Positions 14,564 through 60,843 of a stretch of DNA of 64,000 bases are shown piece after piece. The notes below the pieces were generated by a model. It did no database searches. It was not told where the DNA came from and worked only from the letters and a program-made list of their open reading frames with translations. The stretch is from Mizuhopecten yessoensis (lineage: Eukaryota), in assembly GCF_002113885.1 (NCBI RefSeq), contig NW_018408761.1, positions 997,580-1,061,579 on the forward strand, written 5' to 3'. How positions within the stretch are numbered: position 1 is the first letter of the stretch; every line of letters begins with the position of its first letter. Position numbers and translations under genes: made by a program.

Positions 14564-14649
14564 GTAAGAGCTATATTTTTTACCATTTTTTCTCTTTTGG
14601 TCATCTAACAAATAGCAGTCAGGCACATATTTAACCCTTGTCAATTTTT

Positions 14650-19403: not shown

Positions 19404-19410
19404 TACTTTC

Positions 19411-19600: not shown

Positions 19601-19608
19601 TGTTCCAG

Positions 19609-24158: not shown

Positions 24159-24299
24159 GTGTTCCTGTTAGCTGTTGAAAAGTTACCAGAGAAAGCCCTC
24201 ATCAATGTAGTCAGTTTTGGCACATCTTACTCGGAACTCTTTCCTTCACCTCAAAAGATGACAAAACAGACTTTACAGAAAGTTACAGAATTTGTACAG
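24159..24299 (+). CDS. PARP4: PARP4 exon 20, vWA domain (VFLLAVEKLPEKALINVVSFGTSYSELFPSPQKMTKQTLQKVTEFVQ).
   Basis: Aligns to human IALHALSLVGEKQKVNIIQFGTGYKELFSYPKHITSNT. Confidence 0.85.
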
Positions 24300-25379: not shown

Positions 25380-26700
25380 ATGCATCCTACCAGGATTGGC
25401 CCTAAGCTACTTCAAGGTCATAGGAGTCAACTATGTCAAAAACTTCTAACGACTTTTTCTAAAAAAACGAGGCCAAAAATTGTACTATTTGGCAAGCAGC
25501 TTCTTGGGAAAGAGCCCAATAAAGTTTGCAAACAAATATTACTTTGATCCACTTTCAAGGTTGCAGGGATCAGACATGCCAAATATTCAAACAACTTCTT
25601 TTGAAAAACAAAAATAACCAAGAGTCATGATATTTGGGTATAGGCTTTCTGGGGTACATTCAGCCAAAGTTTGCTAAATAAAATTACTTTGACTTACTTT
25701 CAAGTTGAAAGGGTTCAAAAGAAGGCATAGAATCATGATATTTGGCCAGTAGCTTTCTGGGACAGAGCCATACAATGTGTGTGGGGGGAAAAAGTGGGCT
25801 TGACCTACTTTGAAGGTCCCCAGAGTCAGATATAAAATAACTAGAGTCATGGTATCTTGCTGGTTGCTTTCTAGGATGGAGCCCATCATCATTTCCATGT
25901 CAAGAGTTGACCTTGACATACTTTCAAGGTCACAGACGTCAAATATGTCAAGAAATTCAAATGACTTCTTTCAAAAGGCCTGGAATCATGACAATTTGAA
26001 TGATCCCAAGAATGTATAGGTTGAAAAAAGAAATGACTGACCTTTGACTATCCAGGTCACAAACATAAAATTGTGCTGAGTCATTTAGGGCAAATAAGGT
26101 GTAGATTAAGTACATTCACAATTTCATATTACTGGTATTGTTGAAATAAACCAATTAAATATTACAGACGTCCACTAATATCTTGCACACCAAATCACTT
26201 TACACATTGGACAAGTGAGGAATACAGGCACTTTTTACCACCTGTTAGATTTAGGTCAATTATTACATCACCTTCATTATTTTCATTCTTGACTACCAAA
26301 AGGCCTAGGGTGATGATATTTGGCCAGTAGCATGCTGGAATAAAGGACTGGCAAGTTGTTCAAATGAATGACCCTGACCAATAGTCAAGGTCACAGGAGT
26401 CAAATTTATTGAAAAAATTCAAACAACTTCTTCTGAATAACCAAGAAGCATAGGGAGGTTATATTTGGCCAATAACATGCTGAGATGAAAGGTTATCAAG
26501 TTGAAGAGAATGAACTTCAACCGTATTCAAGGTCACAGGGTTCAAATTTGTTAAAAACTTCAAACAACTTCTTCTGAATAACCAAATGACATAGGGTAAT
26601 GTTATTTAGCCAGTAATATACTGCAATGCATGGTTATCAAATTTGTTCGAATGAATGACTTTGACCTATTTTCAAGGACACAGGGGTCAAATTTGTTTAT
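25380..26700 (+). repeat. Degenerate arrays of type-A ~160-bp monomers (caaacaacttcttttgaaaaac...tttcaaggt.acagg) without recognizable termini.
   Basis: Divergent copies of the monomer seen at 20574-21493 and 55738-56230. Confidence 0.5.
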
Positions 26701-27354
26701 ATGATGTGTTAAAAGTGAATAAATAACTAGACTAACCATCTTTAGTTCAGATCAATAAAATATGTTCAAATCTTCCAACAAAGATTCACAAAGATACATA
26801 AGGTGTAGAGTAATAAAATGTTTTGAGGAAGACCCAAAAAAGTGTATAGCCTGTTTTAACAGCTAAATGAGTTTCTGATACTCCCTTTGATAAACATGTA
26901 TCGTATCCAAAAGGTTGAAAAATTAAAAAAAATAAAATTTAGGTGAGCTAGCTATCAAGGCCCCTGGGCAGTTTGTTGACTATGTTCTGCATTAAGGTTC
27001 ATGCAACTTTACATATTTATGTGCTTTTATCAGAAGAAAATGTCCCACAATATTTTTAAATCCTTGACTATGACCTTGACCTCTATGAAATTGCTTTGGG
27101 TCTTAAGTGTGGGAAGTGGACATCCCTGTCTAACAGACACATTTCTAGTTGAACCTGAAAAGAAGTTTCAGTCGTTCAATTGATGACAACCACGAATATG
27201 GGATTTACTCTGAAAAAGGCCTGTATTCTTTGTGTAAGATTAGAAAACAATGTTAGTATATAACAAAAATTCAAGTTATCTGACAGACACATGGTTTAAG
27301 CTGATTTAAGGCTAAGGGGCCAAGCAAATTATATCTCTACACTGAAAAACTTAT

Positions 27355-28459
27355 TTAAAAAACAAAAACGCTAAGATGCAATAAAACTGACCTTGAAATA
27401 GTTGATGGAGAACTTGGGTGTACTGGTGGTGTTAAGGGTTGTGTTACAGTACTCATCTGGTACATCCTGTAGTTGTAGTGTACATCTCCTAGTTGGACAC
27501 GGTTGCTGCCAGCCTGGTACACAAACTTAAACACTACCGCTGTGGTGGCAGCGGTGGGATGTGATAGGTCAGCACTGCATGTGGTGCCAATCTGTAGTGG
27601 TATCACATCAGTGGAATAGCATGTCGATGTGAGATTTGTCCACGAGATGATGTCTGTTGTTGTTTAAATCCAAACTGTTTGTTTGGCCTCTTGTCAAATT
27701 TTAAAATGGTAACACTAGTTTTTGACTGACTAGTAGTAAGTTTTGACAAATCAGCCAGTTTGAGCAACTCAGTTGTTTCCATTGTTGCAACGTCCTCTTG
27801 ATTGGGATAAAAGTTCATATAAATCCCTGCCTCACTTAGATGGCTTTCCATGATGTACTTCTCACGGTTGAATTTATCTGGACTCGAGAATTGTATAACA
27901 TTCTTTGAGTCAATAACACTAACACAAGAATAGAACCACTTAACATAATTGTTAGTCCAAGGATCTTGGTAAATAGCAGACATTTTGTGTCAGTTTTTCT
28001 CTTGTTTTTTGATAGTTTCGTGTTCTGCAAATCCTTTTTCGAAAATGTGACACTGATTATGGTCAAGACCTCTAACATCACTGCTATGGCCTTAACCATT
28101 TGTAAAATACTGACTGCCACCTTGCAACATCCTGCAATGTAGACATTAAGGAATATCAATGGAACATTTTCCCATACCAAAATCACATTTGCTCCGTCCA
28201 ATAGCCATGAGGGGAGGTGACTCTCATCCTTCACATCCATAATTATAACAATCACCTCTGTTATGTAAGTCATGGTTCCTATAACAGAGAAGGCAAGAAG
28301 TGATGACATCACACTACATGTACTAGGAAATGGTTCAAATACAAGGCCTTGTTCCAGGCCACTGACCTCATAATAAAACAGCCAATCACAAATTAGGTCA
28401 AAGGTCAACGCCAGAGATGAGATGATGAGAATCAAAATTTTGTTTGTGCGGGAATCCAT
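27355..28459 (-). pseudogene. Antisense nested gene or pseudogene inside the 7-kb PARP4 intron. The first ORF encodes a 4-TM membrane protein of unknown family, and two following ORFs run in shifted frames.
   Basis: Three consecutive minus-strand ORFs (28459-27836, 27983-27603, 27606-27355) of 207, 126 and 83 aa in three frames. Hydrophobic helices are clear in the first. The discontinuities could be 1-nt frameshifts or a ~71-nt intron (GTGAGA...caagAG). Confidence 0.4.
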
Positions 28460-31334
28460 CTCTGTAGGAAATTCTTGATTTGTTTTGTCTCAACTGGTTA
28501 GTAAATCAAGTACGCTAGTGATGTCTGAAGTATATGTTATAAAATGACACCTCTTTTAGAGCCTATCACTTTTGGCCTCAACCCTTTTCCTATAATAACA
28601 AATGATGATAAATAGAAATACTTGGCGAAATAAAATTAGAGGTTATATATTTTGACAAAAATGATGTTACAAAATTTACTTGGTAAAGTTACCATTCTTG
28701 ATGCAAATCTATGAAGAAAATTGTTATCATTAAACATGTTTACCTATCAGCATTTTCCTGTAATTGTGTTTTTCAGCAAGAATGTTGGAATTTGAAAAAA
28801 TTCAAAAATGATGATATTGACTCTTAAATCAAATCTGGAAGACAAACATATTTTTCATTACACATGAATCGCATGTTGCTTATCGCTTACCTTTTGTAAC
28901 TTTAATAACAAATTTACCTGTATGCACATAGTGGTTTTCCTCGTCTTGAATGTTTATAATCAAGCTGTTTATCCTAGAGGACTTTGAGAAGAAAATGAAG
29001 CCCGCAATATCTTTCTACAACCATGGCTACAAATCTGTCTATTACTGAGATGTAGTAGATGGATTCTCAACAGTTATCTATTATATGAAGATGAGACTAA
29101 GACTGGTTAGTCCTAAGTGTATTTATTCTGTGTTGGGTGGCCCATGTTAAAAGTGATTATTACAGACATGTATTGTAAGTTTGTCTTGTCTTCTTTAAAT
29201 CATTATTGATCCATATGCATATATTTTGGTAATATTTTCTTAATTTAAAAATGATTGTTTACCGTATTCAGACTTCATGTTTGAGTTATGTTAATTTGAC
29301 CCTCCTGTACGGAACTGCAACTGTAGTTCTGGTAATATAACACTTCAGTGATTATTTAATTAAATATATATAAAAACAGATATTTAGCTTTTGACCTTGT
29401 TAACATTATCAATTTAAATTATAGGTTGTTTTTATATAATATGCAGCAATTTTTATGATTATGTGTGACAATATCCTTAATTTGGTAAACTCGTGACGAT
29501 ACAGAAATTGGCTTGTTCTCAGGGTTCACTGTTGGTGCTGTATGGTCTTTTTGTGAACATTGTTTACATTTGTATGAATTAAACATACACATCTCTGTAA
29601 AATTGTTTAGAAGTTTAAAAGTCCACCAGTATTTGTCCGTCCTGTTAACATACACATTTTGTGCTTGTCAGTTAATGTTATTTGTGACAGCTTTTCAACT
29701 GGATTTCTAAACAGTGATATAAGATATCTCTGTAGCTGTGGCTAAATCATCGGAGCAATGTAACGCTCTTTTTTCATTAAAACTGTGTTTAGGAAATAAT
29801 TTTTATGAACAAATTGAGGCAGCATAAGAGGGTTTTACGGTAATTCAACGTAAAGTTTGAAAATATTTATTCAATAAAAGAAAGGTTTTTTCTTATCAAA
29901 AAATTGTATAATTTTGATTTGTTAAATATACTTAAGTATTTGATAAAATATTAAATACTACTTCACTGTCTAAACCAGGCGGTTCAAATATAGATTTTTA
30001 TTTTGTCTAAAATAAGAATTTGGTTCCAGCAATGAAAATCTATTATACCGTTAAACAATTAGACTATCTACCATCCAGAACATGCAGGAAATCGGCTATC
30101 ATTGCTTGGTCCTAGCTAGGAGTGTTTGTCCACACTTATAGTTTTTGGTGATTATTTCAGAATCCAGAAGTCCAAAACTTATGAAATTTTATATGGTGAT
30201 TTACTGTTATATGCACATATGCAATGGTAGTTATAAAAGTTCATAAGGTCAAAGTCAATATGCACATGCATGTGCAATGGGAGTTTAAAAAGAGCGTAAG
30301 GTCAGTCACTATTGCTAAAACTTCATTGCCTGTGTGACCTGTCAGTGTTGCATTTTTAATTGTTGGTTATGCTTCATTTATACATTGTAGCACCATATAA
30401 CCTTGAACCCGTAATCCAAGATTGCAACAAGTCAAGGTCAAGGTCACTGATACTAATAATAAAACAGGAGTGATTTACTGTTAAAACTACATTTTATGAC
30501 TTGGTCAGTGTTTGTTATGATTGCAAATGTTACTTGGCAGATATCCTGTACATCTATAATGCCATATTTCCTTAATCCTGAAATCTAAGATGGCCGACAT
30601 CTATTGCTTCTGACTGGCTGAGACATAACTTTTGTTTTGTTAATACAATTTTGTTCATATGTCATGGAAAATGATGCTTATAAGGGACAGTCCATATGGT
30701 GAATATGAACATATTGTCCGATACCCATGAAACAAGTTGGCTGACATAGTTTCTCATTGGCTGGGGTTTCAACTTTGAAGTCATATTACCTAGTCTGTAA
30801 CTTTTTATTACAATGTTCCAAATTCCTAGTGATCACTGCATAAGACTTTTTCTTCGCAATTTTGCATTCTAGATAAACTGTCAGGATGGGGCCATTATTT
30901 GCTGACCTATATCTGAGTTCTATGTAATTGGTTCCTGATTTAAATACCTACTAAATTGTGTTCACATTGCATAAATCGCATTGTATATACTGCATTACCC
31001 CAAAATAATTTTGATTTTTCCTTATACATAATGTAATTGCATTAAAAAAGCCAAACAACACTTTCAAGGGCATAGTTAATGAATATTTATTCAAAAATAA
31101 TTTTGCACATAACACAGCATTAATGATTATGCTGTAACTTAATTCATCATCAAGCATCCATTCAGAATTTAAAATTAAAAATACTGCGACAAACATTGTG
31201 GTATAATTCACACCTGGGAAAATCATTGCAACAGTAAATATCACATGAAAGAAATGGGATGTTTAAATTTTGAATTGATGTGATTATTGAATAACGTCAA
31301 ATATACTGATTATAATGTTATAATGATATTTCAG

Positions 31335-31522
31335 GCTGTGCAGCCACATTTGGGAGGAAGCAATGTTGATTACCCAGTAGAGTCCTTGTTCCTTCTCAGT
31401 CCAGCAGAGGGCAGCAGGAGTGTCTTCCTCATCTCAGATGGTTACCTTAGCAACAGTGATGTGTTGCTGTCAACAATCAGGAAAGGAAATGCTAAAAATA
31501 GAGTCTTCACCATTGGTGTTGG
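31335..31522 (+). CDS. PARP4: PARP4 exon 21, vWA domain (AVQPHLGGSNVDYPVESLFLLSPAEGSRSVFLISDGYLSNSDVLLSTIRKGNAKNRVFTIGVG).
   Basis: Aligns to human ...RGSRNILLVSDGHLQDESLTLQLVKRSRPHTRLFACGIG. It follows a 7-kb intron. Confidence 0.9.
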
Positions 31523-32388
31523 GTAAATATGGTATATGTAATGATTATTTTGTAAATTAAGATTTTATATGAAAAAGATAAGTTAAGTTTGATCGGTGCG
31601 TTTCATTTATGTTGAATTTCTACTAACCAGTTGGTATTATTCATGGAAGATTGAATTTTGCTATTTTCAAGGCCATTCAAAATTATGAAAATTTAACATC
31701 TAGCCAATATTTAATATTGCTGTCAATTATAACTGCTGTGACTATAAACAGGCCCACATAGAGTGTATAGACATGCTTATAATTACTGCTAAAAAAACAG
31801 GTGACCAAACTTCAACCAGCTGACCATGTTGTGGTGTTGTCGATGTCAGTTTGTTTTCAAACCTTTCCCAAGCAAGGTTGTTATTAAACAATTAGTAAAA
31901 ACAAATGTGATTTACACGCTTTTATTGAAAAGTAAATAAACCTCACCTGTAAATTGGACATGTCCATGACTTGAGGGTTGTGCGGTACTAATCTAACTTG
32001 CCTACAGTATTATAAATCAATTTTACCTAGTTTCAGAGAATTAGATGGGATTGCTATCTAAGTCTGTGCTAGTACCTATACCAAAGTAGCCAGTGACACT
32101 GAAGTTTTGACTTGCTGGTGTTTCAAAAATTTTCATCCCTGTGAAATAGTTCCAATCAAGATAGCTGCATAACATGAGCCCTTTAAAATTAGATTTGAAA
32201 TTAAACAACTATACAGTATGTAAATGGATGTGCAAGTGTTTCACAGGATAGAGGCAGGACGTATGATGTTGAGGTGTAGGCTATTGATTATCAATTGGAA
32301 TTGAAGCATGATGGGTTTTTTCAAAATGTATATAAAGGTATTTATGTGTAAAGTAAGTAATATTTTGAACTTTGATGTTTTTATGAAG

Positions 32389-32488
32389 ACAAAACGTGAA
32401 CCACCACCTGATGCGGAGCCTGGCGTCACGAGGAGGCGGTACCTATTACCATTACAACTATAAGACACGCTCCGTTTGGGAGGCCAGG
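32389..32488 (+). CDS. PARP4: PARP4 exon 22 (GQNVNHHLMRSLASRGGGTYYHYNYKTRSVWEAR).
   Basis: Aligns to human STANRHVLRILSQCGAGVFEYFNAKSKHSWRKQ. Acceptor ttttatgaag, donor GTGAGT. Confidence 0.85.
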
Positions 32489-33506
32489 GTGAGTGATCCA
32501 GTCTCATCACCTTGTTGTATGAGGCTTTGTTATTGTTGGTTGTAAGCAAGGGAGAAACTCTCAGCATCATCCTGAGAAAATAATCTGACCCAAGCATCTG
32601 CACTAACAAATCTCATATGAAGGATTGTAATTTTAACACAGTACTGGGTCTCTTCTAAAGTGGTGGACGTTTTTTTGTTTCAAACATTACTATACTGTAG
32701 ACCTTGGTTTGAACTCTCATACTAGTAGAATGACTCAGGCATTTATATTCACAAAGTTCACTACAAAGCAAACAGTCATTTAAGTCAGAATGAACAAAAA
32801 ATATAACACTGAGTTCCTTGTTAAATTTCTTTTTGCAAATAATGTTAACGAGCTTTCCTTTAGCATAGGAAAGGGGGTGAGTCTAAATTACAGGTAACAA
32901 ACTTAGTGGTTAAACTATATCATAGTGATCTCAATGTCTTTACTCTAATATACAATTTCGCAACTTTCGTGTTGAGCGATAAACTTCATGTTTTTCCTGC
33001 CATATAATTTCACTGAACCTATTGGAACAGAAGATAATGCCCAAATTCTTCAAGAATTTCTTGAAGTCTCTCAAAAAACAGGGACATAATTCAAATCAGA
33101 GCTTAGTCAATGATTAAAGCTTAATAGGGTAGAAACATGCAGACTAGATCACAAATTAAAAACAAATTTTGCTACTGAAATCATCACATTACATATTGGA
33201 ATACTGGTAGAAGTGGTTCAGTATGATTTACAGAAACAATTATACATATAGATTTGAAATATAGCATTACAAAGAGACAATCTACAGGAAATACGTGTTT
33301 AAAGCTGTCAATCAATATCCATTCCCTTAGTTAACTCATTCACCCCTGATTTCATAATGAATTATTCCAAACTTTGAATTGGAAGAGTTCAAATGTGTCT
33401 TCAGGGGTAATTGAGTTAAATATGATCTCTGAAAATTTCATCTTTAAGAGATATTTAAGAGGTAGTCTTGTACTTCTATGTCACTTTTATGTTTTAATAC
33501 TCTCCA

Positions 33507-33677
33507 GATGAACACTCAAGTTCAGAAGGCATGCCGTCCAGGTATTTCTGGTGTTAAAGTGGAGTGGCAGCAAAACATGGACACGACCAACAGACCTCTT
33601 CAGGCCCCTAATCACATCCCAAGTTTGTTTTCTGGGTCACGACAGGTCGTGTATGGCTTTGTACCTAACTGTACACA
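33507..33677 (+). CDS. PARP4: PARP4 exon 23 (MNTQVQKACRPGISGVKVEWQQNMDTTNRPLQAPNHIPSLFSGSRQVVYGFVPNCTQ).
   Basis: Aligns to human MTRLCSPSCHSVSVKWQQLNPDVPEALQAPAQVPSLFLNDRLLVYGFIPHCTQ. Donor CAG|GTGAGA. Confidence 0.9.
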
Positions 33678-35840
33678 GGTGAGAATTTTTATTACACTGA
33701 TGTGCTGGTAAGCAGGGGTTCAACTAGTTATATCTTTGTATGGCTTTGTACCTAACTGCACACAGGTGAGAATTTTTATTACACTGATGTGCTGGTAAGC
33801 AGGGGTTCAACTACTCCCCTCGGTAGGGACAAGTTATATCTTTGTATGGCTTTGTACCTAGCTGTACACAGGTGAGACTTTGTATTACACTGATGTACTG
33901 GTAAGCAGGGGTTCAACTACTCACCTCGTTAGGGACAAGTTATATCTTATCTTTGTATGGCTTTGTACCTAACTGTACACAGGCGAGAATTTTTATTACG
34001 AGGATGTGCTGGTAAGCAGGGGTTCAACTACTCGCCTCGTTAGGGACAAGTTATATCTTTGTATGGCTTTGTACCTGAATTTAGGCAGGGGAGGCTTTGT
34101 ATTACACTGATGTGCTGGTAAGCAGGGGCTCAACTACTCACCTCGGTAGGGACAAGTTATATCTTCATATGGCTTTGTACCTAACTGTACACAGGTGAGA
34201 ATTTTTATTACGAGGATGTGCTGGTAAGCAGGGTTTCAACTACTCACCTCGGTAGGGACAAGTTATATCTATGTATGGCTTTGTACCTAACTGTACACAG
34301 GTGAGACTTTTTATTACGAGGATGTGCTGGTAAGCAGGGGTTCAACTACTCCCCTCGGTAGGGACAAGTTATATCTTTGTATGGCTTTGTACCTGAATTT
34401 AGGCAGGGGAGGCTTTGTATTACACTGATGTGCTGGTAAGCAGGGGTTCAACTACTTATTTCTGGTGTTAAAGTGGAGTGGCAGCAAAACATGGACACGA
34501 CCAACAGACCTCTTCAGGCCCCAAATCACATCCCAAGTTTGTTTTCTGGGTCACGACAGGTCGTGTATGGCTTTGTACCTAACTGTACACAAGTGAGAAT
34601 TTTTATTACGAGGATGTGCTGGTAAGCAGGGTTTCAACTACTCACCTCGGTAGGGACAAGTTATATCTTCATATGGCTTTGTACCTAACTGTACACAGGT
34701 GAGAATTTTTATTACACTGATGTGCTGGTAAGCAGGGGTTCAACTACTCCCCTCGGTAGGGACAAGTTATATCTTTGTATGGCTTTGTGCCTAACTGTAC
34801 ACAGGTGAGACTTTGTATTACACTAATGTGCTGGTAAGCAGGGGTTCAACTACTCACATCGGTAGGGACAAGTTATATCACGCTTTATATCTAGATAAAA
34901 TAAAACGAGTTCATTACAAAGATGACCGGACAAAAAATGATGTATTCAATATCAATATCAATATTGATATATCTTTGTATGGCTTTGTACCTAACTGTAC
35001 ACAGGTAAGACTTTGTATTACACTGATGTACTGGTAAGCAGGGGTTCAACTACTTACCTCGTTAGGGACAAGTTATATCTTTGTATGGCTTTGTACCTAA
35101 CTGTGCACAGGTGAGACTTTGTATTACACTGATGTGCTGGTAAGCAGGGATTCAACTAGTTATATCTTTGTATGGCTTTGTACCTAACTGTACACTGGTG
35201 AGACTTTGTATTACGAGGATGTGCTGGTAAGCCGGGGTTCAACTACTCACCTCGGTAGGGACAAGTTATATCTATGTATGGCTTTGTACCTAACTGTACA
35301 CAGGTGACACTTTGTATTACGAGGATGTGCTGGTAAGCAGGGGTTCAACTACTCCCCTCGGTAGGGACAAGTTATATCTTTGTATGGCTTTGTACCTAAC
35401 TGCACACAGGTGAGAATTTTTATTACACTGATGTGCTGGTAAGCAGGGGTTCAACTAGTTATATCTTTGTATGGCTTTGTACCTAACTGCACACAGGTGA
35501 GAATTTTTATTACACTGATGTGCTGGTAAGCAGGGGTTCAACTAGTTATATCTTTGTATGGCTTTGTACCTAACTGCACACAGGTGAGAATTTTTATTAC
35601 ACTGATGTGCTGGTAAGCAGGGGTTCAACTAGTTATATCTTTGTATGGCTTTGTACCTAACTGTGCACAGGTGAGACTTTGTATTACACTGATGTGCTGG
35701 TAAGCAGGGGTTCAACTACTCACATCGGTAGGGACAAGTTATATCACGCTTTATATCTAGATAAAATAAAACGAGTTCATTACAAAGCTGACAGGACCAA
35801 AAATGATGTATTCAATATCAATATCAATATTGATTATATT
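33651..35840 (+). repeat. Tandem satellite (~108-bp unit, ~20 copies) derived from the 3' end of PARP4 exon 23 plus its GT donor and the start of the intron. It includes a 180-bp partial re-duplication of the exon at 34440-34620 and an 880-bp higher-order period.
   Basis: The unit ctttgtatggctttgtacctaactgtacacagGTGAGAatttttattacactgatgtgctggtaagcaggggttcaactactc.cctcggtagggacaagttatat repeats head-to-tail. Its first copy is the authentic exon end. Confidence 0.85.
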
Positions 35841-35924
35841 AGGAGACTGTAAGTGCAGAATTAAGTTCTTTGCAAAGGGGTTTTTAATGTGTGGTGGAAC
35901 TGGAATGGGTTGATTGTCGGTGGC

Positions 35925-36010
35925 CAGGTAGCTCAAATAGTAGTGTCTGTCTAGTGTTGTGAGGGTTCCAGGTTTGAACCCCAGTCTGGCCATTGCATTT
36001 CTGTTTTGCA
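35925..36010 (+). mobile_element. tRNA-derived SINE head fragment (ggccaggtagctcaaatagtagtg...ggttccaggtttgaaccccagtctggccattgcatttc).
   Basis: A-box/B-box-like GTAGCTCA and GGTTTGAACCCC. A homologous copy lies at 62706-62800. Confidence 0.45.
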
Positions 36011-36070
36011 ACAAATGTATTGTTGTGTCTGGTTGTAATTTGGTTAGTCTGTTTAATGAAGAAGGTAAAA

Positions 36071-37117
36071 AGGTTATATTAGCTCACCTATGAGCTTATG
36101 GTATGGCGTGTTGTCACTCGTCTGTCATCCGCCCGTCATTGAGTCTGTCGTTCATCGTCCCATCAACGTTTTCTTTGAATGGCTTGTTCTCAAGAACTGG
36201 AGGACCTAGGGCCATGATATTTGTTCAGTAGGTACCTGGGACAGAGTGCTGTAATATTTTCTCAAATAAATGACCTTAACTTACTTTCTATGTCACAGGG
36301 GTTAAATATATAAAAAAACCTTTAAACAACTTCTTCTGAATAACCAGGAGGCCCAGAGTAATAATACTAGGTCAGTATGTACCTGGCATGAAGTGCTATA
36401 AAGTGTCCTCAAACAAATGACCTTGACTTACTTTCAAGGTCACAGGGGTCAAATGTGTTTAAAAACCTTTAAAACATCTTCTTCTGAATTTCTGAATAAC
36501 CAGTAGGCTAAGAGTCATGATATTTGGTTTGGCCAGTAGGTTCATGGGACAGAGTGCTATAAGTTTTCCTCCAATAAATAACCTTGACCTACTTTCAAGG
36601 TCATGGGTTAAATATGTAAAAAATAAATTAAACATCTTCTTCTAAATAACCAGGAAGCCCAAAGTAATAATACTTGGCCAGTAGGTACCTGGCATGAAGT
36701 GCTATAAAGTTTCCTCAAATAAATGATCTTGACATACTTTCAATGTCACAGGGTTCAAAATTGTAAAAATCTTTAAACAACTTCTTCTGAATAGCTAAGA
36801 GGCTTAGAGCAATGATATTTGGCTAGTAGGTACCTGGGACAGAATGCTATCACGTTTCCTCATATAAATTACCTAGACCTCCTTTACAGTCACAGGGTTC
36901 AAATATGTGAATACTTCTTCTGCAATACCAGGATGCCCTCATTGATGATGTTTGACAAGTAGCATGCTGGGATAGAGTAGTATAAAGCTTCATTTAGTCT
37001 GGAGCATTCTTAAGCCAAGGAAACTCAATATATTAAAATATTTACAAAAGTACTTTTATTGAGAATATTTTCCCATGATTGCTCAAATAACCAGGTGAGT
37101 GATAAGAGGGCCTCTTG
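36071..37117 (+). mobile_element. HINE-like element, type A variant.
   Basis: Head AGCTCACCTATGAGCTTATGG, ~160-bp monomers and tail CCAGGTGAGTGATAAGAGGGCCTCTTG. Confidence 0.6.
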
Positions 37118-37340
37118 TAAAATGATTAAAGAGTTTCTCCATTTCAGAATGTTGTCAGTCTGTTAGAGATATATATAGATGGTAATATTTGCCTCGGACA
37201 AATAACAAACTTACAATGTCGGATCATACCAAGGTAAATATCTCTTTGTAACAATAACAAACTTACAATGTCGGATCATAACAAGGTAAATATCTCTTTG
37301 TAACAATAACAAATTACAGCAACCATCATTTATTTTACAG

Positions 37341-37421
37341 GCCTATTTGAAGGCAACTGTGGACAACATGGAGGTTTCTACGATGGTAGCAACAACAGAA
37401 CTCAACATTACACAAGGAGAG
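37341..37421 (+). CDS. PARP4: PARP4 exon 24 (AYLKATVDNMEVSTMVATTELNITQGE).
   Basis: Aligns to human ATLCALIQEKEFRTMVSTTELQKTTGT. Confidence 0.85.
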
Positions 37422-37803
37422 GTAATCAACATCAATTAGAAATGGAAAATGTATTCTATTATAATATCTCATTGCTTGTGAACAGAACTCCTTTTTCAAC
37501 ATCTCGTTCATTCAGATAAATTAAAGTCTATCTACCAGAAGCATAACATTTACATCAGACTTCCAAAGGTGAATTCAAAGCATTTCTCTTGGTTGTCATT
37601 TATATTTACTTGATATTTTGTACTTTACACCACAAGCTTTCTAGTTAATTAAATCAGATTATCAGGGCCCTAGCTGGTGATTTTTATGTGAGTAAATAAA
37701 TTCTACAACCTGTGTGAAAGTTTGATGGAATAGCAGCATTGAAAACAATGTTACCTGTTTTACATGTAGTTCTCTCCCCTGATTGGATATATTTTGTCCC
37801 CAG

Positions 37804-37884
37804 ATGCTGCATCAGCTGACGGCTCGTGCGGTGATCCGTGACTACGAGGATGGCATCCTTTGTGAGGACAAGATACAACAGCGG
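37804..37884 (+). CDS. PARP4: PARP4 exon 25 (MLHQLTARAVIRDYEDGILCEDKIQQR).
   Basis: Aligns to human MIHKLAARALIRDYEDGILHENE. Confidence 0.9.
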
Positions 37885-38569
37885 GTAGGTACTCGTGCAA
37901 ACATAATCTCTTATTTTGCAATTATTCAAATGCTATTGGTACAAATTCTCAAGAAACACAAAAAAAAAAATCATAACATTAAATTACTTTTGAATAATTG
38001 AAATAATACAGAGTTGGCTGTTGGCTGTCATTGACCGTGACAAAAGGTGGATTGTTGTTCTGATGGTACTTACCAAACATACAAAACTTGTTTGCAAAGC
38101 TGTCCTTTCTGGTTTGGTCCTCTATACATCAACTAGCCAAAGATATTGCAATGATTCCCATGAAGGTTTTGTTGTAATGATTGAATCATTGCAATTAACT
38201 TAGTCATGATGAATGGATACAACCAATATTTCAGATCTAGTATTATCAAAGTTTTGTTAGTGTATAACCTGTTTCTCCATGATCAAAGAATTTTAACGTG
38301 TTTGGTGCCAACTCATGCTGGATATCTTATAGACTCTATACTGCAGATAACTCTGACCAAGATCACTGTTTCCAAGTGCTTCCATTGTGCTAAACCCTTG
38401 GTTAACGGTTACTATCCCATTGTTCTATAGATTAACCTGAAGAGAAATTCCATCTAGCCGAATCAGTAACAAAGTTTCTAAATAATTCACCACTTTGACA
38501 TAGCCCTCCATGGAAGGACCTGACCCCTAAGACTTCAGTGACAACCATAATTATGCCTTTAAGAGTAAG

Positions 38570-39370
38570 GCTAAAGAGATGATAAAACATAGTATTGTGA
38601 TCACATTGTAAGCACCAGTGTATACGTAACTGAGATCCTTATTTCTCTTACCCTGGACAGGTGTATACACACTTTTCCTGTTGTGAGTTTATAATAGAAT
38701 CTTTCACCCCAAAGGGTGAGATGAGGGAATCTCAACCCGAGGGGGAAGATTCTTAAGTTGACAGCAAAGCCTCAGGTTCGGCAACTTAGGAGAATCTCAA
38801 CCATTCTTTCCCTGAGGGTTGAGATTCTCCTATCTCACCCCCAGGGGGATGAGAGATTATTTTTCTCTTACCCTGTTCTTGCATTGTGTATAATATACAT
38901 ATTGTAATGTTACAGGCTAAATTCAGGGTTGACGTGACGTTGATGGATTGTTTATGTGACGTCATACCATTGTTATGAATAGGGGAATCCCCCCGTTTCA
39001 ACCCTAGGGTGTGACATTGATATATCACACCGGTAAAAGTGTGGATACACCTGTCCAGGGTAAGAGAAATCCTTGTCTTTCCTAGGGTTGAGACGGGGGG
39101 ATTCCCCTATTCATAACAACTGTATGACGTTACGTCAACATTACATCAGCATCATGTCAACAACGTATTATATGATACACAATGAGTGAACAGGGTATTA
39201 AGAGAAAAATAATTATTGACCCGCTTGTGGTTGAGATTGGGGAAATATTCTTAAGTTGCCTTACACTCGGCAAAACCTCATGTTTGTCAACTTAAGAATC
39301 GTCCCCATCATGTTGAGATTCCGCTATCTCACCCGCAAGGGGTGAGAGATTCTATTATTCCAAGTTCACC
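38570..39370. mobile_element. Large foldback-type element. Palindrome arms are ~400 bp, centered near 39030, with nested smaller hairpins.
   Basis: cctggacaggtgtatacacactttt (38652) pairs with aaaagtgtggatacacctgtccagg (39040). gggaatccccccgtttcaaccctaggg pairs with cctagggttgagacggggggattccc. Internal palindromes at 38720-38870 and 39230-39360. Confidence 0.6.
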
Positions 39371-39537
39371 CGCTAGGTCTCTAATCCAGATTTACAAAAT
39401 TCAAATCCATTCTAAACTTTCTCCTAATTATCAGAGTCAACAAGTGATTAGATGCTTCTCTACTTTGACAATCAGAAAGCCAGTACTAGCTGAATAAGTT
39501 CTCAGAATTGATTTCAGTATGAACTGTGCTTCTTCAG

Positions 39538-39639
39538 GTGCTGAAACAGGAGAGAAAGAACACCATTATACAGCTGAGCACGGAGTACTCCATTGTGACC
39601 CCCTACACCAGCTTTGTGGCCATTGAGGAAAGAGATCAG
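39538..39639 (+). CDS. PARP4: PARP4 exon 26 (VLKQERKNTIIQLSTEYSIVTPYTSFVAIEERDQ).
   Basis: Aligns to human TLKSLIIKLSKENSLITQFTSFVAVEKRDE. Confidence 0.9.
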
Positions 39640-40474
39640 GTATTTACAGTGTTAATAACTTGTATCTCTTGTACAGATCTGGGAAATATTAAGGGATTCC
39701 TTTACAACCTTTGGTTGGTTGGTTCACATGTTTATCAGTCAGTGTGGGGGAGGGGGGTTAAGTGGCCTTTACAAACCCTCCTAGTCATGTGTGTCTATGC
39801 ATGATCCCCACGGCACTCCTATCCCTAAGCAATCCTGTGAATGCTTCTTATATATATATTTATATACCAGATGCAAATTAAAGTCAACCTGTCTTTGTCA
39901 GCACCTCTGTTAATAAGCAGACACTTCTCTAATCCTGCCACTGTTAAGGAATATAGTACTGTATAACATGAAATGTTCGATGTGTATAAACATTCGAGGT
40001 TTTCGTGGTTTCTATTGAATCACGAAAATAAATTCAAACAAATTTGAATGATATAAGTGTCTACTGTTTGTTATTATAGGATATCCACAAAAGTTTGTAC
40101 CATGAAACGATCTAAATGGCTTCAATCCACTAAGGAAAATAGCCACGAACATTTTGTGTTATACAGTATTATAGTTATAGTCAAACAATTAATTAGAACT
40201 TGTATAATAGCCACTTGTATTCAGCAGCCACTTTTGACGATCCCTAAATCAGGTTTTACCATACAATACCTTGTCGATCTTGAATAACTAGGCCCACTGA
40301 GGACGACTCATCTTACATATGAAACAACATCTGTTGATATCTGAAATAACACACAAAATTGTCCAACTGTAATGACTTTTTTATGCTGCTTGACATTGTT
40401 TTATCATATTATTGAACTTTTTATCAAACAGCACATGAAAACATAAAATTGTTTGTGTTTCTTACCATTGTCAG

Positions 40475-40582
40475 GATGAGCAGATAACAGATGGACCATC
40501 TATTGATGACCTGGTTGCTGAGGAATCTGTAGACATTTTGGATTATGTAGGCTGGCAGAACCCTGATTTCTTTGATGAAAAG
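40475..40582 (+). CDS. PARP4: PARP4 exon 27 (DEQITDGPSIDDLVAEESVDILDYVGWQNPDFFDEK), the last exon with clear colinearity to human before the low-complexity part.
   Basis: Aligns to human ESPFPDIPKVSELIAKEDVDFLPYMSWQGEPQE. Confidence 0.75.
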
Positions 40583-41235: not shown

Positions 41236-41382
41236 GAGCCAGAAGAAATTGTAGAGGAACTGTTAAGAAAAGCTTTGATTGCAGAGAGCTTCTCACAACA
41301 GGAGGCAAATAGAACCTATGCCTCTATCTTAGATTACAAATCCTGTCTTCAAAACGATGCCAACAACGAACTCAAAGAAAAG
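41236..41382 (+). CDS. PARP4: Probable PARP4 exon 28 (EPEEIVEELLRKALIAESFSQQEANRTYASILDYKSCLQNDANNELKEK).
   Basis: The frame opens exactly at the acceptor tctgatctag, with an in-frame TAG immediately upstream. 49 codons in phase 0, donor GTAACT. No human similarity. Confidence 0.5.
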
Positions 41383-41999: not shown

Positions 42000-42087
42000 G
42001 TTATGGAAGCAGCTGAAAGATTTTTCTCCTGTTCTAAAGATGACATTAGCCAAAATATGTTGGCAGAGTTTCGGAAAAGTTTTCCTT
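42000..42087 (+). CDS. Exon encoding VMEAAERFFSCSKDDISQNMLAEFRKSFP, which joins in frame to the ubiquitin-like exon. Either an alternative PARP4 exon or the first coding exon of a nested UBL gene (ATG at 42003).
   Basis: Acceptor ttttcaaag, donor GTAAGT. Phase 0 in, phase 1 out, exactly matching the UBL frame of the next exon. Confidence 0.45.
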
Positions 42088-42549: not shown

Positions 42550-42726
42550 TCCCAATCGAGATACACACCCTGACTGGTAGGACTATCCCCGTGAGTGTGT
42601 CCGAGGGCGACACCGTGTCTGACTTGAAGAATAAGATCCATCAGATAGATGGACTTGACCCAGAGCAGCAGAGATTGATTGTTGGTGGGAAACCGCTGAA
42701 GGATCTCGCTGTTCTCTCCGATCTTG
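42550..42726 (+). CDS. Ubiquitin-like domain exon, first part (FPIEIHTLTGRTIPVSVSEGDTVSDLKNKIHQIDGLDPEQQRLIVGGKPLKDLAVLSDL).
   Basis: About 40% identical to ubiquitin residues 1-58 (TLTGKTI, DQQRLIFAGKQL, TLSDY). Acceptor ccattgcag, donor G|GTAATT. Confidence 0.7.
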
Positions 42727-46593: not shown

Positions 46594-46700
46594 ATCTGGA
46601 GTATAATGCTGTCTTCCTGTTACCAAGGCTGCGAGGGGGACTTAGTTTTGGTCTCAAGGAAGATTTGAAAACAAAGCGTATTCTCGCGGAAAACGTATGA
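46594..46700 (+). CDS. Ubiquitin-like domain terminal exon (DLEYNAVFLLPRLRGG + LSFGLKEDLKTKRILAENV, stop TGA at 46698-46700).
   Basis: Completes the UBL with the RLRGG C-terminal motif. The phase-1 junction with 42726 restores the frame. Acceptor ctatattcttcag. Confidence 0.65.
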
Positions 46701-51232: not shown

Positions 51233-51459
51233 GACATGAATGAGTATGATCAGATATATGGTAAGAAGGTGCATACGGAAAAGGACAAAAGCTGTACTGA
51301 TGATGGAAAAAACCCGGTGAAGATGTCCTCATTGTTTTCTCCTTTTAGGCAATCCTTACGAATGATGGCTCCAAGGAAACAGTTAGCAACCAAAGCTGCC
51401 AGAAAATCTGCACCTGCAAACTTTGATGAAAATGAGGAGGAGCAGAATGAGGATGACAG

Positions 51460-51497
<38 letters not shown>

Positions 51498-54337
51498 TTG
51501 AAAAGATGGGCAACTTTAGCTGCATGGCACTTCCAGATGACAACGTGGTTGATGATGCTACGAACAAGAAACAGGAAGTGTCAGATGTAGGAAGAATACC
51601 AGACTCTCCACTCTCAGCAACACAGTTTGGCCCCTTGTCTCCAAAATGTTCAGATTCATTTGGTACAAACTTTGAAAAATTTGAAATCTCTCAGTATTTA
51701 GATGAAGACATGGAGATTGATTTAGATACTGAAGACCCGGCATTCCTCATTCTCACTTCTGAAATATCTGACATATTTTCACCTTCAATGGCAGGCCATT
51801 CTCAGGACACTCCAGCCTATATATCAACCTCCCCATCTTACAAACCAACTTCCCCATCCTATTCGCCCACTTCCCCATCTTACAAACCAACTTCCCCATC
51901 CTATTCGCCCACCTCCCCATCTTACAAACCAACTTCCCCATCCTATTCGCCCACCTCCCCATCTTACAAACCAACTTCTCTATCCTATTCGCCCACTTCC
52001 CCATCTTACAAACCAACTTCTCCATCCTATTCACCAAATAGAAGAGCACGAAGAGCCAAATCAACATTTGAGGATTTCCAACATGAATCAACATCAAACA
52101 ATAAAGATTTTGTGGTTTCAGGTTCAAGACAAGCAAAGTCAAGCAGCACATCTAGTGAACATGGTTTGTGTGGAGCTCCAGTGCAAGCAGAACCAGGCAG
52201 TAAACCAAGTCAGAGCTTCAATTTTAATGCTTCGCTACAAACAGCATCAAGCAATGAACCAACACAAAGTTTGGGATTGGGGGCTCCAAACCTAGCAGAA
52301 CTAGGCGGTAAACCAAGTCAGGGGTTCAATTTTAGTGCTCCTCTAGTAACAGCATCAAGAAATATATCAACACAAAGTTTGGGATTGGGGGCTCCAAACC
52401 TAGCAGAACCAAACACAATGCCAAGTCAAGGGTTTTCCTTTGGAGCTCGAATGCAAACAACTCAAAGCGCTTCACCAGCCGAAGGTTTCAGTTTTTCTCA
52501 GAATCAAACATTGCAGAGCATTACCAGTAAAGGAAGCCATTGTTTTGGATTTGGGACTTCAAAACCAGCCGGAGCAAGCAGAACGACAAGTCAAGGGTTT
52601 TCCTTTGGCGCTCAAATGCAGTCCCAACGATGCAATATACCAACCCAAGATTTCTATTTTGGAGCTTCAAATTCAGCAGGTTTTGGAGATGACGGTGACA
52701 GACGTGGTGGTTATGGAGGTGTCAGTGTTAGACCTGGTGGTTATGGAGATGACAGTGACAGACGTGGTGGTTATGGAGGTGTCAGTGTTAGACGTGGTGG
52801 TTATGGAGGTGTCAGTGAGGGACTTGGTGGTTATGGAGGTGTCAGTGTTAGACGTGGTAGTTATGGAGGTGACAGTGTTAGATGTGGTGGTTATGGAGGT
52901 GTCAGTGAGGAATGTGGTGGTTATGGAGGTGTCAGTGAGGGACTTGGTAGTTATGGAGGTGTCAGTGAGGGACTTGGTAGTTATGGAGATGACGGTGTCG
53001 GACGTGGTGGTTATGGAGATGACAGTGTCGGACGTGGTGGTTATGGAGGTGACAGTGTCGGAGGTGATGGTTATGGAGGTGTCAGTGAGGGATTTGGTGG
53101 TTATGGAGGTGACAGTGAGGGATGTGGTGGTTATGGAGGTGTCAGTGTTAGATGTGGTGGTTATGGAGGTGTCAGTGAGGGACGTGGTGGTTATGGAGGT
53201 GACAGTGAGGGACGTGGTGGTCCTAGACTTGCTGGTTCTAAAGATGGACATGTTTCTTACATAGAAACAGCACCAACATTTACATATTTGAAGGATCTTG
53301 ACTTGAATTTAGCAAAACATGATCCAAAAACTAGGATATTGAAGGAAAATGACAGAAGACCTTCCAGTGTAACAGAGAAGGATCTGCCTTCACAGCCTTT
53401 CAGACATGTACAGGATAAAATGTTCCCACCAGACTTTGATGAATCCTTATTACCTAAACAAAAGAGAAAAATTCCTCCTGTTGGAAGAGGAGGTTCTGGA
53501 TTCACTGCAAGGAATGACCAGGGTCCTGCTGAAACAACCAAAGAACAAGGTCGAAGGTCATTAAAGTCAGTCAGAGGCGCAATGCATGGTGCAAGATCAA
53601 GAGACAGAAATAGGGAACAATCTCGTGAGCTTATTGTGCTGGATAAGAGTAAAAAACTAAGTTTGAGTCATGACAGAAGGCGGAGGAGTTTGAGTAGAAG
53701 TTTGAGTCGAGACAGAAGACAGAGGAGTTTGAGTAGAAGTTTGAGTCGAGACAGAAGGCGGAGGAGTTTGAGTAGAAGTTTGAGTCGAGACAGAAGGCGG
53801 AGGAGTTTGAGTAGAAGTTTGAGTCGAGGAAGGGGGAGAAGAGACTTGGAAAGATGTTACAGTAGAGATAGAGCAAGAAAGGAAAATAAAAAAATGCACA
53901 GATCAAGTGGAAATAATGATACAAACAGTAGGAATAAAAATAGGGACAAAGCAGGAAGCAAAATAGACAGAGATCCTGCAAGAGAAAGTAAGAAACAGAT
54001 AAAGCATAAAAATGAAAAGAAGGAGCAAACAAAGGCTGATGAACAGGTTGTCAAAACATTTGGGAAAAAAGGGAAGAAAAGGGAACAGACAAGGGATGAT
54101 GAAGAGATTGTCAAAACTGGAGGGAAGAACCTGTCAGGAAAGTTGGAATATGATGATCATGAGAAAATGGACTTTACAGTGGACATGGCACCAACTTTGA
54201 AAGTCTGGGATGTAACATCAGAGACAGGCAAGGACATTGTGAAATTCATAAAGTATATTTCTGATTCAATCTTCTTTTATATACAAAAGATCTGTAATTT
54301 TCTACAAATTCAAGTGAGCTTAAGTGAACTTTCTTGA
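51233..54337 (+). CDS. 3.1-kb open reading frame (giant exon or intronless gene) encoding a modular low-complexity protein. Its modules are a histone H3(15-31) mimic, a poly-Asp tract, RNAPII-CTD-like heptads, FG repeats, GGYGG repeats, an RS domain and a K/E tail. It is probably the large low-complexity exon of the PARP4 ortholog.
   Basis: Uninterrupted 1033-codon ORF. The acceptor tttcag at 51227-51232 lies immediately after an in-frame TGA at 51206. Phase 0 is compatible with PARP4 exons 27 or 28. Human PARP4 also has a large S/P-rich low-complexity region at this position. Confidence 0.7.
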
Positions 54338-58913: not shown

Positions 58914-59013
58914 GGACAATATTGGGAACTGACTCCAGAGCTGTGTCAAACCCTCGGTGTTTTCTACATCAAGGTCACCAACCAGCTGAAGCTACATGGC
59001 CTGTACTCCTTAG
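58914..59013 (+). CDS. PARP4: PARP4 C-terminal exon (GQYWELTPELCQTLGVFYIKVTNQLKLHGLYSL).
   Basis: WELTPEL aligns to WKLTPEL of the human vault-interaction region. Acceptor gtgtttcacag, donor G|GTATGT. Confidence 0.8.
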
Positions 59014-60475: not shown

Positions 60476-60843
60476 GAAGCCATGCTGCATCCTTAGGAGA
60501 AAACATGGTAGCAACATATCTTGTGGTCCTCAAGATAATACAGATCATTTACCAGCAGATGAACAGAAAACCACTGAAATTGGACCTGGCCGGATTTGCG
60601 TCTTTGGACTTGATGAACTGGACATTGAATTGTAACAATACCCTGTCCATCAAGTTAGATACTACGCGGTCAACAGGATGCTCAGCGGTGTTGTATCTCC
60701 ACAATGAAATATCAGGTGTTCACAAATGGTTGACCGAGAAGCGTGGTGAACATGAACGACTCTGTAGGCAGTTAGAACTAGGACATTCCTTACAAACTTT
60801 CACTTGGAACCTTTTCTGTGCTCTCAACGAAAAGCCAGTCTGA
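60476..60843 (+). CDS. PARP4: PARP4 terminal exon (GSHAASLGENMVATYLVVLKIIQ...KWLTEKRGEHERLCRQLELGHS...NEKPV*), stop at 60841-60843.
   Basis: Aligns to the human C-terminus ATMLVLQFIRT...EWVRRTEGQYPSICPRLELGND. The phase-1 junction with the previous exon is consistent. Confidence 0.8.

Follow-up and report, generated by a model that had tools for sequence, protein, structure and literature searches.

The 64,000-nucleotide stretch of the Mizuhopecten yessoensis genome analysed here (contig NW_018408761.1; hereafter, the window) contains a 1033-codon open reading frame (ORF) which is very probably the giant linker exon of an orthologue of PARP4, the vault PARP. This assignment is made because of the position of the ORF, its splice phases, the sequence created at its downstream junction and the comparison with the brachiopod Lingula anatina and with a further PARP4-family locus, L033. 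The exon encodes a long, low-complexity segment which, judged by its matches, is pieced together from short copies of motifs found in other host proteins, in this case exclusively nuclear ones. The explanation that best combines these observations, and to which we assign a probability of about 0.55, is that a PARP4 linker exon also provides a multivalent bait; taken by itself, the role of the linker as a bait or decoy tether for factors that recognize the host motifs is tentative and falls short of even odds.

Coding status of the ORF

The ORF (51236-54337, forward strand) begins with an ATG and belongs to a frame that is open from 51209; an acceptor-like tttcag ends at 51232, 3 nt ahead of the ATG. 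Across 51233-54310, this frame contains no stop codons, against 35-115 in the remaining five frames, so that the uninterrupted frame reported in the initial annotation of this DNA is borne out, and the probability of 1042 open codons, computed from base composition, is about 6e-32. The composition and ORF density of the window are those of an intron-rich eukaryotic genome, and no other ORF in the window is longer than 460 residues; a single further one is longer than 210 codons. Tandem repeats account for about 30% of the ORF, the length of each unit (42, 108, 30 and 39 bp) being a multiple of three, and the approximately 700 codons outside the repeats are open in one frame only. On these sequence grounds, the reading frame 51236-54337 is a coding exon.

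A homology search with the whole ORF was swamped by matches to the carboxy-terminal domain (CTD) of RPB1, which covered 2%-9% of the ORF, namely, the heptad part. Profile scans revealed no Pfam or NCBIfam family for the ORF as a whole, and four of its unique parts (residues 1-43, 88-195, 268-320 and 865-1006) had no match in PDB.

PARP4 gene context and splice model

The exons upstream of the ORF were identified by tblastn with PARP4-like proteins of Lingula, fish and locus L007, and by Pfam matches to fragments of PARP_reg, PARP, VIT and VWA_3, which follow one another in the expected order. The catalytic Tyr and Glu motifs are present (GCGIYFSNSA and DDEFVVYSPRQQRIRYVVEF), and the ITIH-like tail ends with ...TSFVAIEERD and ...VDILDYVGWQ at 40567. 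From 41236 to 60843, splice sites read by eye and by script define a chain of seven exons (Table 1) in which all phases fit, with no internal stop and a single terminal one; the stop-free chain amounts to 1352 codons (4059 nt) when the big exon is ended at 54310, and ending it at 54313 adds one codon.

Splicing from the donor at 54313/54314 to 58914 yields LQIQ/GQYWELTPEL, to be compared with human LQTEDGFWKLTPEL and fish LQSPEGYWECTAEV, and restores the conserved LQ-x4-(Y/F)W motif. When a 163-residue domain query was compared with 177,635 distinct PDB sequences, human PARP4 (1581-1644) was the sole match; a longer junction query produced three weak PDB matches, one of which was again human PARP4 (1579-1636 and 1668-1702, part of its MVP-interacting domain), and fish PARP4 aligns with the MVP-interacting domain of the window in a pairwise comparison (E=7e-6). 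The flanking PARP4 exons, the fitting phases and this junction support the earlier suggestion that the ORF is the low-complexity exon of a vault PARP orthologue. The exact junctions proposed along with it fared less well. That from 41382 to 51233 is in frame but passes over a three-exon ubiquitin-like cassette, whereas that from 53987 to 55606 fails, leaving the conserved YWELTPEL frame, and the donor at 54313/54314 is better. The linker exon is the largest of the gene and of low complexity, with no folded domain according to Pfam, NCBIfam and segment composition. We infer that it is included in the mRNA and that its product is anchored in the vault as in human.

Three other splicing solutions were tried and rejected. 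The first is a 31-nt micro-exon at 55606-55636, which has a good acceptor and a GTAAGT donor; its inclusion would lead out of the YWELTPEL frame and break the frame of the anchor domain, so that it could act as a poison exon or go unused. The second is an alternative exon ending with ...FVLLLQ at 55605, where the site is an acceptor and not a donor. The third, a direct splice from 42726 to 51233, shifts the frame into a stop.

The ubiquitin-like cassette lies between the helical-region exon and the linker exon. Its first ubiquitin-like exon matches Pfam ubiquitin (PF00240) at E=1e-14 over profile positions 1-57 of 72. Because the match stopped at position 57 and the phase-1 donor cannot join 51233, a further exon was sought, and a scan for exons leading from phase 1 to phase 0 returned a single candidate, 46594-46694, with a long polypyrimidine acceptor. 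This exon encodes DLEYNAVFLLPRLRGG..., completing the predicted ubiquitin fold, and its addition extends the PF00240 match to positions 1-64 of 72 (E=3.3e-15). The resulting domain is 45% identical to ubiquitin and has PRLRGG, with its di-glycine, at the C-terminus. It is a possibility that the linker and the anchor could be cut from the enzyme at this di-glycine end after translation. The three cassette exons total 366 nt, and skipping them (41382 joined to 51233) therefore keeps the frame. No ubiquitin-like domain was found in the Lingula locus (in the contig recovered) or in locus L001. Dispersed and tandem repeat families occupy 42760-50500, within the 8.5 kb between the first ubiquitin-like exon and the big exon; they carry recurring pseudo-peptides, such as GLAPLGPERRGP, which account for the many short ORFs there, and exon 46594-46694 sits embedded among them.

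Motif copies within the linker exon

The modules listed in the initial annotation, namely, a histone H3 copy, a run of 12 aspartates, CTD-type heptads, FG motifs, GGY repeats, an RS array and a K/E tail, are all present (Table 1). Some details required revision: the count of ten heptads stands, whereas the GGY repeats, put at about 20, comprise 17 GGYGG decamers, and the comparison of these repeats with FUS and RGG proteins holds for the GGY repetition but true RGG boxes occur in only a few of the units.

The core of the H3 copy (residues 45-61) is identical to H3 residues 15-31 at 17 of 17 positions, the copy beginning one residue later than a simple count gives. Its flank reads RQSLRMM where H3 8-14 has RKSTGGK, and the whole gives the impression that a longer stretch of the tail was copied and then decayed outside its preserved core. 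When the H3-like stretch was compared with all PDB sequences using phmmer, 124 matches were obtained, and those listed were, without exception, histone H3 itself, H3 peptides or H3 chimeras. The stretch is a putative mimic and not a histone, because the alignment ends at H3 residue 32, without a histone fold, and Pfam returned no histone match.

The heptad stretch includes four YSPTSPS, four YKPTSPS, one YKPTSLS and one YISTSPS, plus a truncated YSPNRRA, and passes, on its own, the cut-off of Pfam RNA_pol_Rpb1_R (PF05001; 30.8 bits against 20.3, E=2.9e-7). Two heptad types show three synonymous differences, with Y-x-P-T-S-P-S retained. The Pfam scan found no RPB1 polymerase core domains in the ORF. 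The FG region, which includes a 108-bp unit in 2.1 copies, does not match Pfam Nucleoporin_FG and gives only a weak match to Nup_retrotrp_bd (E=0.71), and no nuclear-pore anchoring domain was found in the ORF. Likewise, Pfam scans detected no RRM or other folded domain alongside the RS array and the GGY repeats.

Two further candidate copies, in the part of the ORF that had appeared to be unique, are a new finding. They correspond to a segment of the splicing factor SLU7 and to the N-terminal motif of PRPF6, and both were signalled by sub-threshold Pfam matches in the segment comprising residues 661-815 (Slu7, E=6.8e-4; PRP1_N, E=1.3e-3). With short queries, human SLU7 273-296 was the sole PDB match of the former, and PRPF6 sequences were the sole PDB matches of the latter; a 155-residue query spanning both regions had no PDB match at E<=1. 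In a shuffle test (ungapped BLOSUM62, 20,000 shuffles of the ORF), the SLU7 copy scored 71 against a maximum of 48, the PRPF6 copy 70 against 55 and the H3 copy 84 against 51, with 0 of 20,000 shuffles reaching the score in question; this test is post hoc, the peptides having been picked after the searches. It is thus the agreement of two independent searches, of Pfam and of PDB, rather than the shuffle test, that carries weight in the case for the putative SLU7 and PRPF6 copies. Four of the modules, namely, the heptads, the GGY units, the RS units and part of the FG region, owe their present extent to recent in-frame minisatellite expansion.

Table 1. Exons of the PARP4-like gene and modules of the linker exon, with positions in the window
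Feature	Position	Strand	Details
Upstream PARP4-like exons: BRCT-like, PARP regulatory and catalytic, VIT, vWA, ITIH-like tail	4786..40567	+	exon-bearing span, large introns
Helical-region exon (EPEEIVEELLRK...NELKEK)	41236..41382	+	phase 0/0
First exon of ubiquitin-like cassette (VMEAAERFF...RKSFP)	42000..42087	+	phase 0 acceptor, phase 1 donor
Ubiquitin-like domain, first exon (PIEIHTLTGRTIPV...LSDL)	42550..42726	+	phase 1/1
Ubiquitin-like last strand, ending PRLRGG, then LSFGLKEDLKTKRILAEN	46594..46694	+	phase 1 acceptor, phase 0 donor
Giant linker exon (predicted), 1027 codons	51233..54313	+	phase 0/0; ORF 51236-54337 minus read-through past donor CAA/GTGAGC
Histone H3 tail copy	51347..51418	+	core 51368-51418 = H3 15-31; flank = degenerate H3 8-14
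D12 run, residues 76-87	51461..51496	+	inside longer acidic stretch
Ten CTD-type heptads, residues 195-264	51818..52027	+	42-bp minisatellite, 4.9 copies, 96%
FG / FxF(G) region, residues 325-484	52208..52687	+	about 8 motifs: SFNF, GFNF, GFSFG (three), CFGFG, DFYFG, GFG
17 GGYGG(V/D)S-x3 decamers, residues 488-657	52697..53206	+	30-bp minisatellite, 18 copies, 87%
SLU7 motif copy (putative)	53282..53353	+	compared with human SLU7 273-296, 24 residues
PRPF6 N-terminal motif copy (putative)	53465..53536	+	compared with human PRPF6 16-39, 24 residues
RS array, four DRR(R/Q)RSLSRSLSR units, residues 813-864	53672..53827	+	39-bp minisatellite
K/E/R-rich tail	53828..54166	+	no specific match
Likely start of MVP-interacting domain (GKDIVKFIK...KICNFLQIQ)	54227..54313	+	ends at phase-0 donor
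MVP-interacting domain exon (GQYWELTPELCQTLGV...LYSL)	58914..59013	+	phase 0/1
Last MVP-interacting domain exon (...HKWLTEKRGEHERLCRQLELGHS...)	60476..60843	+	phase 1; stop TGA 60841-60843

Related PARP4-family linkers

The best named PARP4 relative found is that of Lingula. There, the ITIH-like tail is followed in frame by an acidic exon, by an exon with SPAYSPTSPSFY and ...HEVSPAYSPTSPSFYQP... and by a 664-codon exon, which contains FG repeats (GFTFGAQ, SFGFGAQ), one RGRGGYSFGG, poly-proline and a K/S-rich tail; in the NCBI annotation, this region is divided between two gene models. The FG part of the Lingula exon matches that of the window (BLASTP, E=2e-4), and a single YSPTSPS heptad, preceded by PA, is common to the two linkers. 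A single heptad, as in Lingula, appears to be the ancestral state of the linker, and this heptad, the FG repeats and one GGY unit appear to be older linker features that were amplified in the species of the window.

When an alignment of the ITIH-like tail was used to scan metagenome contigs, 80 further loci were obtained. One of them, L033 (assembly WLWD01), has a linker exon of 530 open codons and about 25 YSPTSP(A/V) heptads (Pfam Rpb1 heptad, E=2e-27). The exon structure of L033 is that of the window: the big exon ends with ...LQTQSIS at a phase-0 donor, the next exon starts with DGSWPL..., and the second exon has ...YPSLYSQLELGRNWES. In three paralogues from the same assembly, L017, L027 and L036, with PARP catalytic exons upstream, the linker contents differ from those of L033 and include actin residues ~18-73, a synaptobrevin SNARE motif, poly-proline and DDDMGFGLF; in L036, the SNARE motif has a Pfam E-value of 8e-13 and the actin fragment spans residues 18-73. 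The WLWD01 linkers carrying fragments of host proteins are those of L033, L036, L017, L027, L021, L016, L024 and L034.

Other loci carry still other fragments. L007 is an intronless PARP4-like ORF of 2006 codons, the linker of which matches positions 6-64 only of the actin profile (E=2e-12) and also contains a ribosomal P-stalk-like EEDSSEDDMGFGLFD, EDDMGFGLFD and poly-proline, followed by the anchor domain. In L011 and L008, the same ORF that encodes the ITIH-like tail matches positions 136-223 of the 223-position 14-3-3 profile (E=1e-23), and in L011, MGFGLF motifs, which resemble the ribosomal P-stalk, follow the 14-3-3 fragment; L008, L010 and L011 are grouped among the PARP4-family linkers with host-protein fragments. 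L080 has EEDNDMGFG and HLFGLPPPPP repeats and a segment that passes Nucleoporin_FG, and fragments of actin 6-73 are also found in L001, L012 and L015. Linker contents thus differ between paralogues within one assembly and between species. The apparent host-protein fragments in other PARP4-family linkers, as well as the heptad and FG repeats at the same position in Lingula, are new findings; no description of host-protein copies in PARP4 linkers was found in the literature searched, coverage of which was incomplete.

A short motif, [YF]xC[MV]A[LVP]P, follows the acidic run in several linkers and lies at residues ~93-103 of the ORF (about 51510-51545). It takes the form FSCMALPDD in the window, YECMAVPEG in L001 (18005-18055) and HFCVAPSP in L022, with a shorter YIYECRD in L018; in fish PARP4, the corresponding place is taken by repeated acidic motifs (...TYENVE / TYVNVE).

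Histone H3 copies and acidic runs in other proteins

An exhaustive HMMER search with residues 1-195 of the ORF returned 13 proteins at E<=0.001, several of which are non-histones with a copy of the H3 tail followed by a poly-D/E run. These proteins, P0133, P0134 (L005), P0136 (L006), P0137 (L003/L004), P0138 and P0142, come from environmental eukaryotes and are uncharacterised. In P0134, the H3 copy followed by D9 occurs twice, and PANFD after the H3 part is common to P0134 and the window ORF. The C-terminal domain of P0137 (L003) matches the VWA5A-type C-terminus of L022 (E=4e-12) and shows no detectable similarity to the anchor domain of the window or of fish PARP4. VWA5A is the human protein for which an ITIH-like region and a domain similar to the PARP4 anchor have been reported (PMC10450202). 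In one of the proteins with an H3 copy and an acidic run, the pairing precedes an FHA-like region, and L003 has a second, degenerate H3-like exon upstream (GKRSGVAPRSHLATSAARSS).

Other features of the window

Tandem repeats are found elsewhere in the gene. An exon at 33466-33708 (+), GISGVKVEWQQ...YGFVPNCTQ, is duplicated at 34440-34622, and its 3' end together with the start of the intron (YGFVPNCTQVR...) occurs in about 20 tandem copies within the intron (window 33466-35750). The big exon itself is flanked by repeats, upstream at 50535-51050 (63-bp unit, eight copies) and immediately downstream at 54346-54976 (58/122-bp unit, ten copies). The locus is generally prone to minisatellite formation. 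On the reverse strand, an open frame of 474 codons at 1230-2651, which includes an SD-rich stretch and matches nothing in Pfam, probably represents a single-exon gene of its own.

Comparison with known systems

In vertebrate PARP4, the largest exon (exon 30 in human) specifies ~360 disordered residues; both its sequence and its length are hypervariable, it has evolved under positive selection, and it has been proposed to be a host-pathogen interface (Daugherty et al., 2014, PMC4038475). In the human protein, a disordered segment joins the ITIH-like region to the MVP-interacting domain (1570-1724) and has been suggested as a possible site of viral cleavage or modification (Suskiewicz et al., 2023, PMC10450202), whereas the C-terminus is anchored inside the vault and long disordered regions bridge the folded domains (PMC12280208). 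The window exon occupies the same position in the gene, after the vWA domain and ITIH-like tail and before the MVP-interacting domain, and, like exon 30, is the largest exon, predicted to be disordered, devoid of Pfam domains and variable in length and sequence (Daugherty et al., 2014, PMC4038475; Suskiewicz et al., 2023, PMC10450202). Unlike exon 30, it is about three times longer (1027 codons against ~360), contains motif copies and minisatellite arrays and has a ubiquitin-like domain ahead of it; no such motif copies are reported for the vertebrate exon (PMC4038475, PMC10450202).

Host-target mimics within a disordered, fast-evolving part of a protein bring to mind the integrated decoys and tripwires of plant NLR, of NLRP1, which is cut by viral 3C proteases (PMC7857732), and of NLRP1B (PMC13037943); as in those systems, paralogues bear different mimics, and the host-protein copies reside in a variable region of the carrier. 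The carrier here would be a vault-anchored ADP-ribosyltransferase, not an NLR. The likeness is one of design only. To our knowledge, PARP4 has not been linked to any effector, cleavage event or downstream signalling.

Individual modules invite comparison as well. Histone mimics are non-histone proteins with H3-tail sequence including ARKS (PMC8166343, PMC11738798), as is the window product, but the known mimics are ~4-8 residues long whereas the window copy has 17 identical residues (H3 15-31) and is followed by an acidic run. The tandem YSPTSPS heptads pass the RNA_pol_Rpb1_R cut-off, as do those of the RPB1 CTD, but they number ten, half of them with Lys at position 2, and are not attached to an RPB1 core. 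With FG nucleoporins and SR and RGG proteins, the exon shares FxFG/GFSFG motifs with polar spacers, RS dipeptide arrays and Gly/Tyr/Arg repeats; it differs from them in having neither a nuclear-pore anchor nor an RRM, in leaving Nucleoporin_FG unmatched and in that most GGY units are without a true RGG box.

The linker as a proposed bait tether

Under the reading that we favour, a disordered tether of ~1030 residues would join the enzyme body (PARP, ITIH-like and ubiquitin-like domains) to the C-terminal vault anchor and display copies of host motifs, so that factors that bind, modify or cleave the originals would be caught at the vault and PARP4. Candidates for capture include cellular enzymes, transport receptors and pathogen effectors, such as viral proteases and capsid or polymerase proteins, which, once captured, might undergo ADP-ribosylation or be sequestered; in another version, the tether would be cleaved and the enzyme thereby freed from the anchor. 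We favour a bait because the vertebrate exon is positively selected and cleavage or modification of the segment has been suggested (PMC4038475, PMC10450202), because actin 6-73 or the last third of 14-3-3 is unlikely to fold or work as a normal domain, and because paralogous linkers differ in content. The suggestion in the initial annotation that the enzyme carries its own substrate or decoy sequences gains some indirect support from the SLU7 and PRPF6 copies in the ORF and from the actin, synaptobrevin, 14-3-3, P-stalk and CTD copies in PARP4-family linkers elsewhere. Toxins or viral proteins are well known to target actin, synaptobrevin, the tail of the P-stalk, the H3 tail, the CTD of Pol II and FG nucleoporins, although these examples may be self-selected.

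A broader proposal, for which the odds are slightly lower than for the bait itself, is that the linkers of the PARP4 family, in the vault PARP and VWA5A-like proteins alike, are evolvable arrays of integrated decoys, each a copy of a conserved host peptide to which pathogens bind or which they modify or cleave, with the vault acting as an effector trap or sensor. The inventory of such decoys would comprise H3, Pol II CTD, FG, SLU7, PRPF6 and RS copies in the window, and the actin D-loop region, synaptobrevin, 14-3-3, P-stalk and CTD copies elsewhere. If this holds, the variant in the window would be directed specifically at agents that make use of nuclear machinery.

Several observations weigh against the combination of a PARP4 linker with a bait. 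The exact ORF product is absent from the protein collections searched, by exact-sequence look-up, a word-index search found no match for the non-repeat parts, and the metagenome contigs scanned contain no close relative of these parts. Neither Lingula (in the part of the contig recovered) nor any other PARP4 orthologue found carries H3, SLU7 or PRPF6 copies, which, apart from L003-L006, are lacking from the other 86 loci fetched as well. The repeat arrays are near-identical at the DNA level, and their copy number may therefore be neutral. Vaults are mainly cytoplasmic and PARP4 resides in their lumen, whereas the copied motifs are nuclear, which would limit the access of the normal partners of these motifs. 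Moreover, disordered linkers tolerate exon shuffling, and functionless captured fragments may therefore persist in them. Finally, each match of the MVP-interacting domain is statistically weak when taken singly (E=0.12 against PDB, 7e-6 pairwise), and the AlphaFold2 model of the spliced domain and junction has a predicted local distance difference test (pLDDT) score of 34, too low to be of use.

Alternative explanations

The alternative that survives best, unlikely though we consider it, is that the exon encodes a neutral spacer, a flexible PARP4 tether in which the copies and arrays are debris of exon shuffling and slippage with no binding role. The near-identity of the arrays at the DNA level, hence their recent expansion, would be expected of such debris, as would the mostly non-synonymous differences between the spacers of the FG motifs, the great variation of linker content among species and paralogues and the unique ORF parts without detectable homologues. 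However, neutrality sits poorly with an H3 copy that retains 17 identical residues between decayed flanks, with a PA-preceded YSPTSPS heptad common to Lingula and a heptad array in L033, with the recurrence of conserved host-protein fragments in many independent PARP4-family linkers and with the positive selection on the vertebrate exon (PMC4038475).

Distinctly less probable is a transport-receptor or condensate platform, in which the FG, RGG and RS modules would form a phase in the vault lumen and segments resembling import signals (the H3 tail, RGG, RS and the basic tail) would recruit receptors and cargo. The types of module found in the window bind karyopherins or drive condensates, which counts in its favour, as do the FG repeats in the window ORF, Lingula and L080. 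With a reported ~20 PARP4 per reconstituted vault (bioRxiv 10.64898/2026.05.01.722283) and an assumed lumen of ~5e4 nm3, a rough estimate gives tens of mg/ml of linker in the lumen. A platform nonetheless leaves the actin, synaptobrevin, 14-3-3 and P-stalk fragments and the SLU7 and PRPF6 copies unexplained, and the FG region of the window falls below Pfam Nucleoporin_FG. If true, it would link vaults to nucleocytoplasmic traffic.

We give little credence to the possibility that the copies are substrates in cis, that is, acceptor sites for ADP-ribosylation by the catalytic domain of PARP4 itself, although the idea of the enzyme's own substrate was raised in the initial annotation. The catalytic Tyr and Glu motifs are in place and the H3 copy includes ARKS, and the KS motifs of the H3 tail are sites of serine ADP-ribosylation by PARP1/HPF1; but this specificity is known for PARP1/HPF1 and not for PARP4, and automodification would not explain the actin, SNARE and 14-3-3 fragments elsewhere. 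The chances are just as slim that the ORF is a nested gene, translated separately from ATG 51236 within a 12-kb PARP4 intron, or that an internal promoter yields a protein consisting of the linker and the anchor. Such a product is suggested by the ATG 3 nt past the acceptor, by the stop that closes the frame and by the two NCBI gene models in Lingula, and the upstream PRLRGG could allow release of the linker after translation. Against this, the acceptor and donor phases match those of the PARP4 exons at either end, the conserved beginning of the MVP-interacting domain is completed by the final residues of the exon, L033 shares the exon structure, the Lingula exons chain in frame and the linker and enzyme of L007 form a single 2006-residue ORF. 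That the open frame is merely a by-product of in-frame minisatellites in non-coding DNA, a possibility raised in the initial annotation, is effectively refuted by the frame statistics: although about 30% of the ORF is tandem repeat and two other frames are also open within the GGY array, the idea is rejected because the non-repeat codons are open in one frame only, and it is countered further by the canonical splice sites, by the specific protein motif matches and by the counterpart exons, which are open wherever they were found (Lingula, L033, L018 and L007).

Implications

What vaults and PARP4 do is a decades-old question, and the only functional lead concerning the linker was hitherto a statistical one, the positive selection in the largest vertebrate exon (PMC4038475). 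Were the copies in the window neutral debris, the locus would still show how minisatellites and fragment capture build a coding exon of 1000 residues. If the favoured explanation of a PARP4 linker serving as bait is correct, the window and the related loci would give the proposal of a host-pathogen interface a concrete content, in the form of named host peptides that vary by paralogue and species. They also suggest an approach to reading the disordered regions of immune-related proteins, namely, searching them for fragments of other host proteins.

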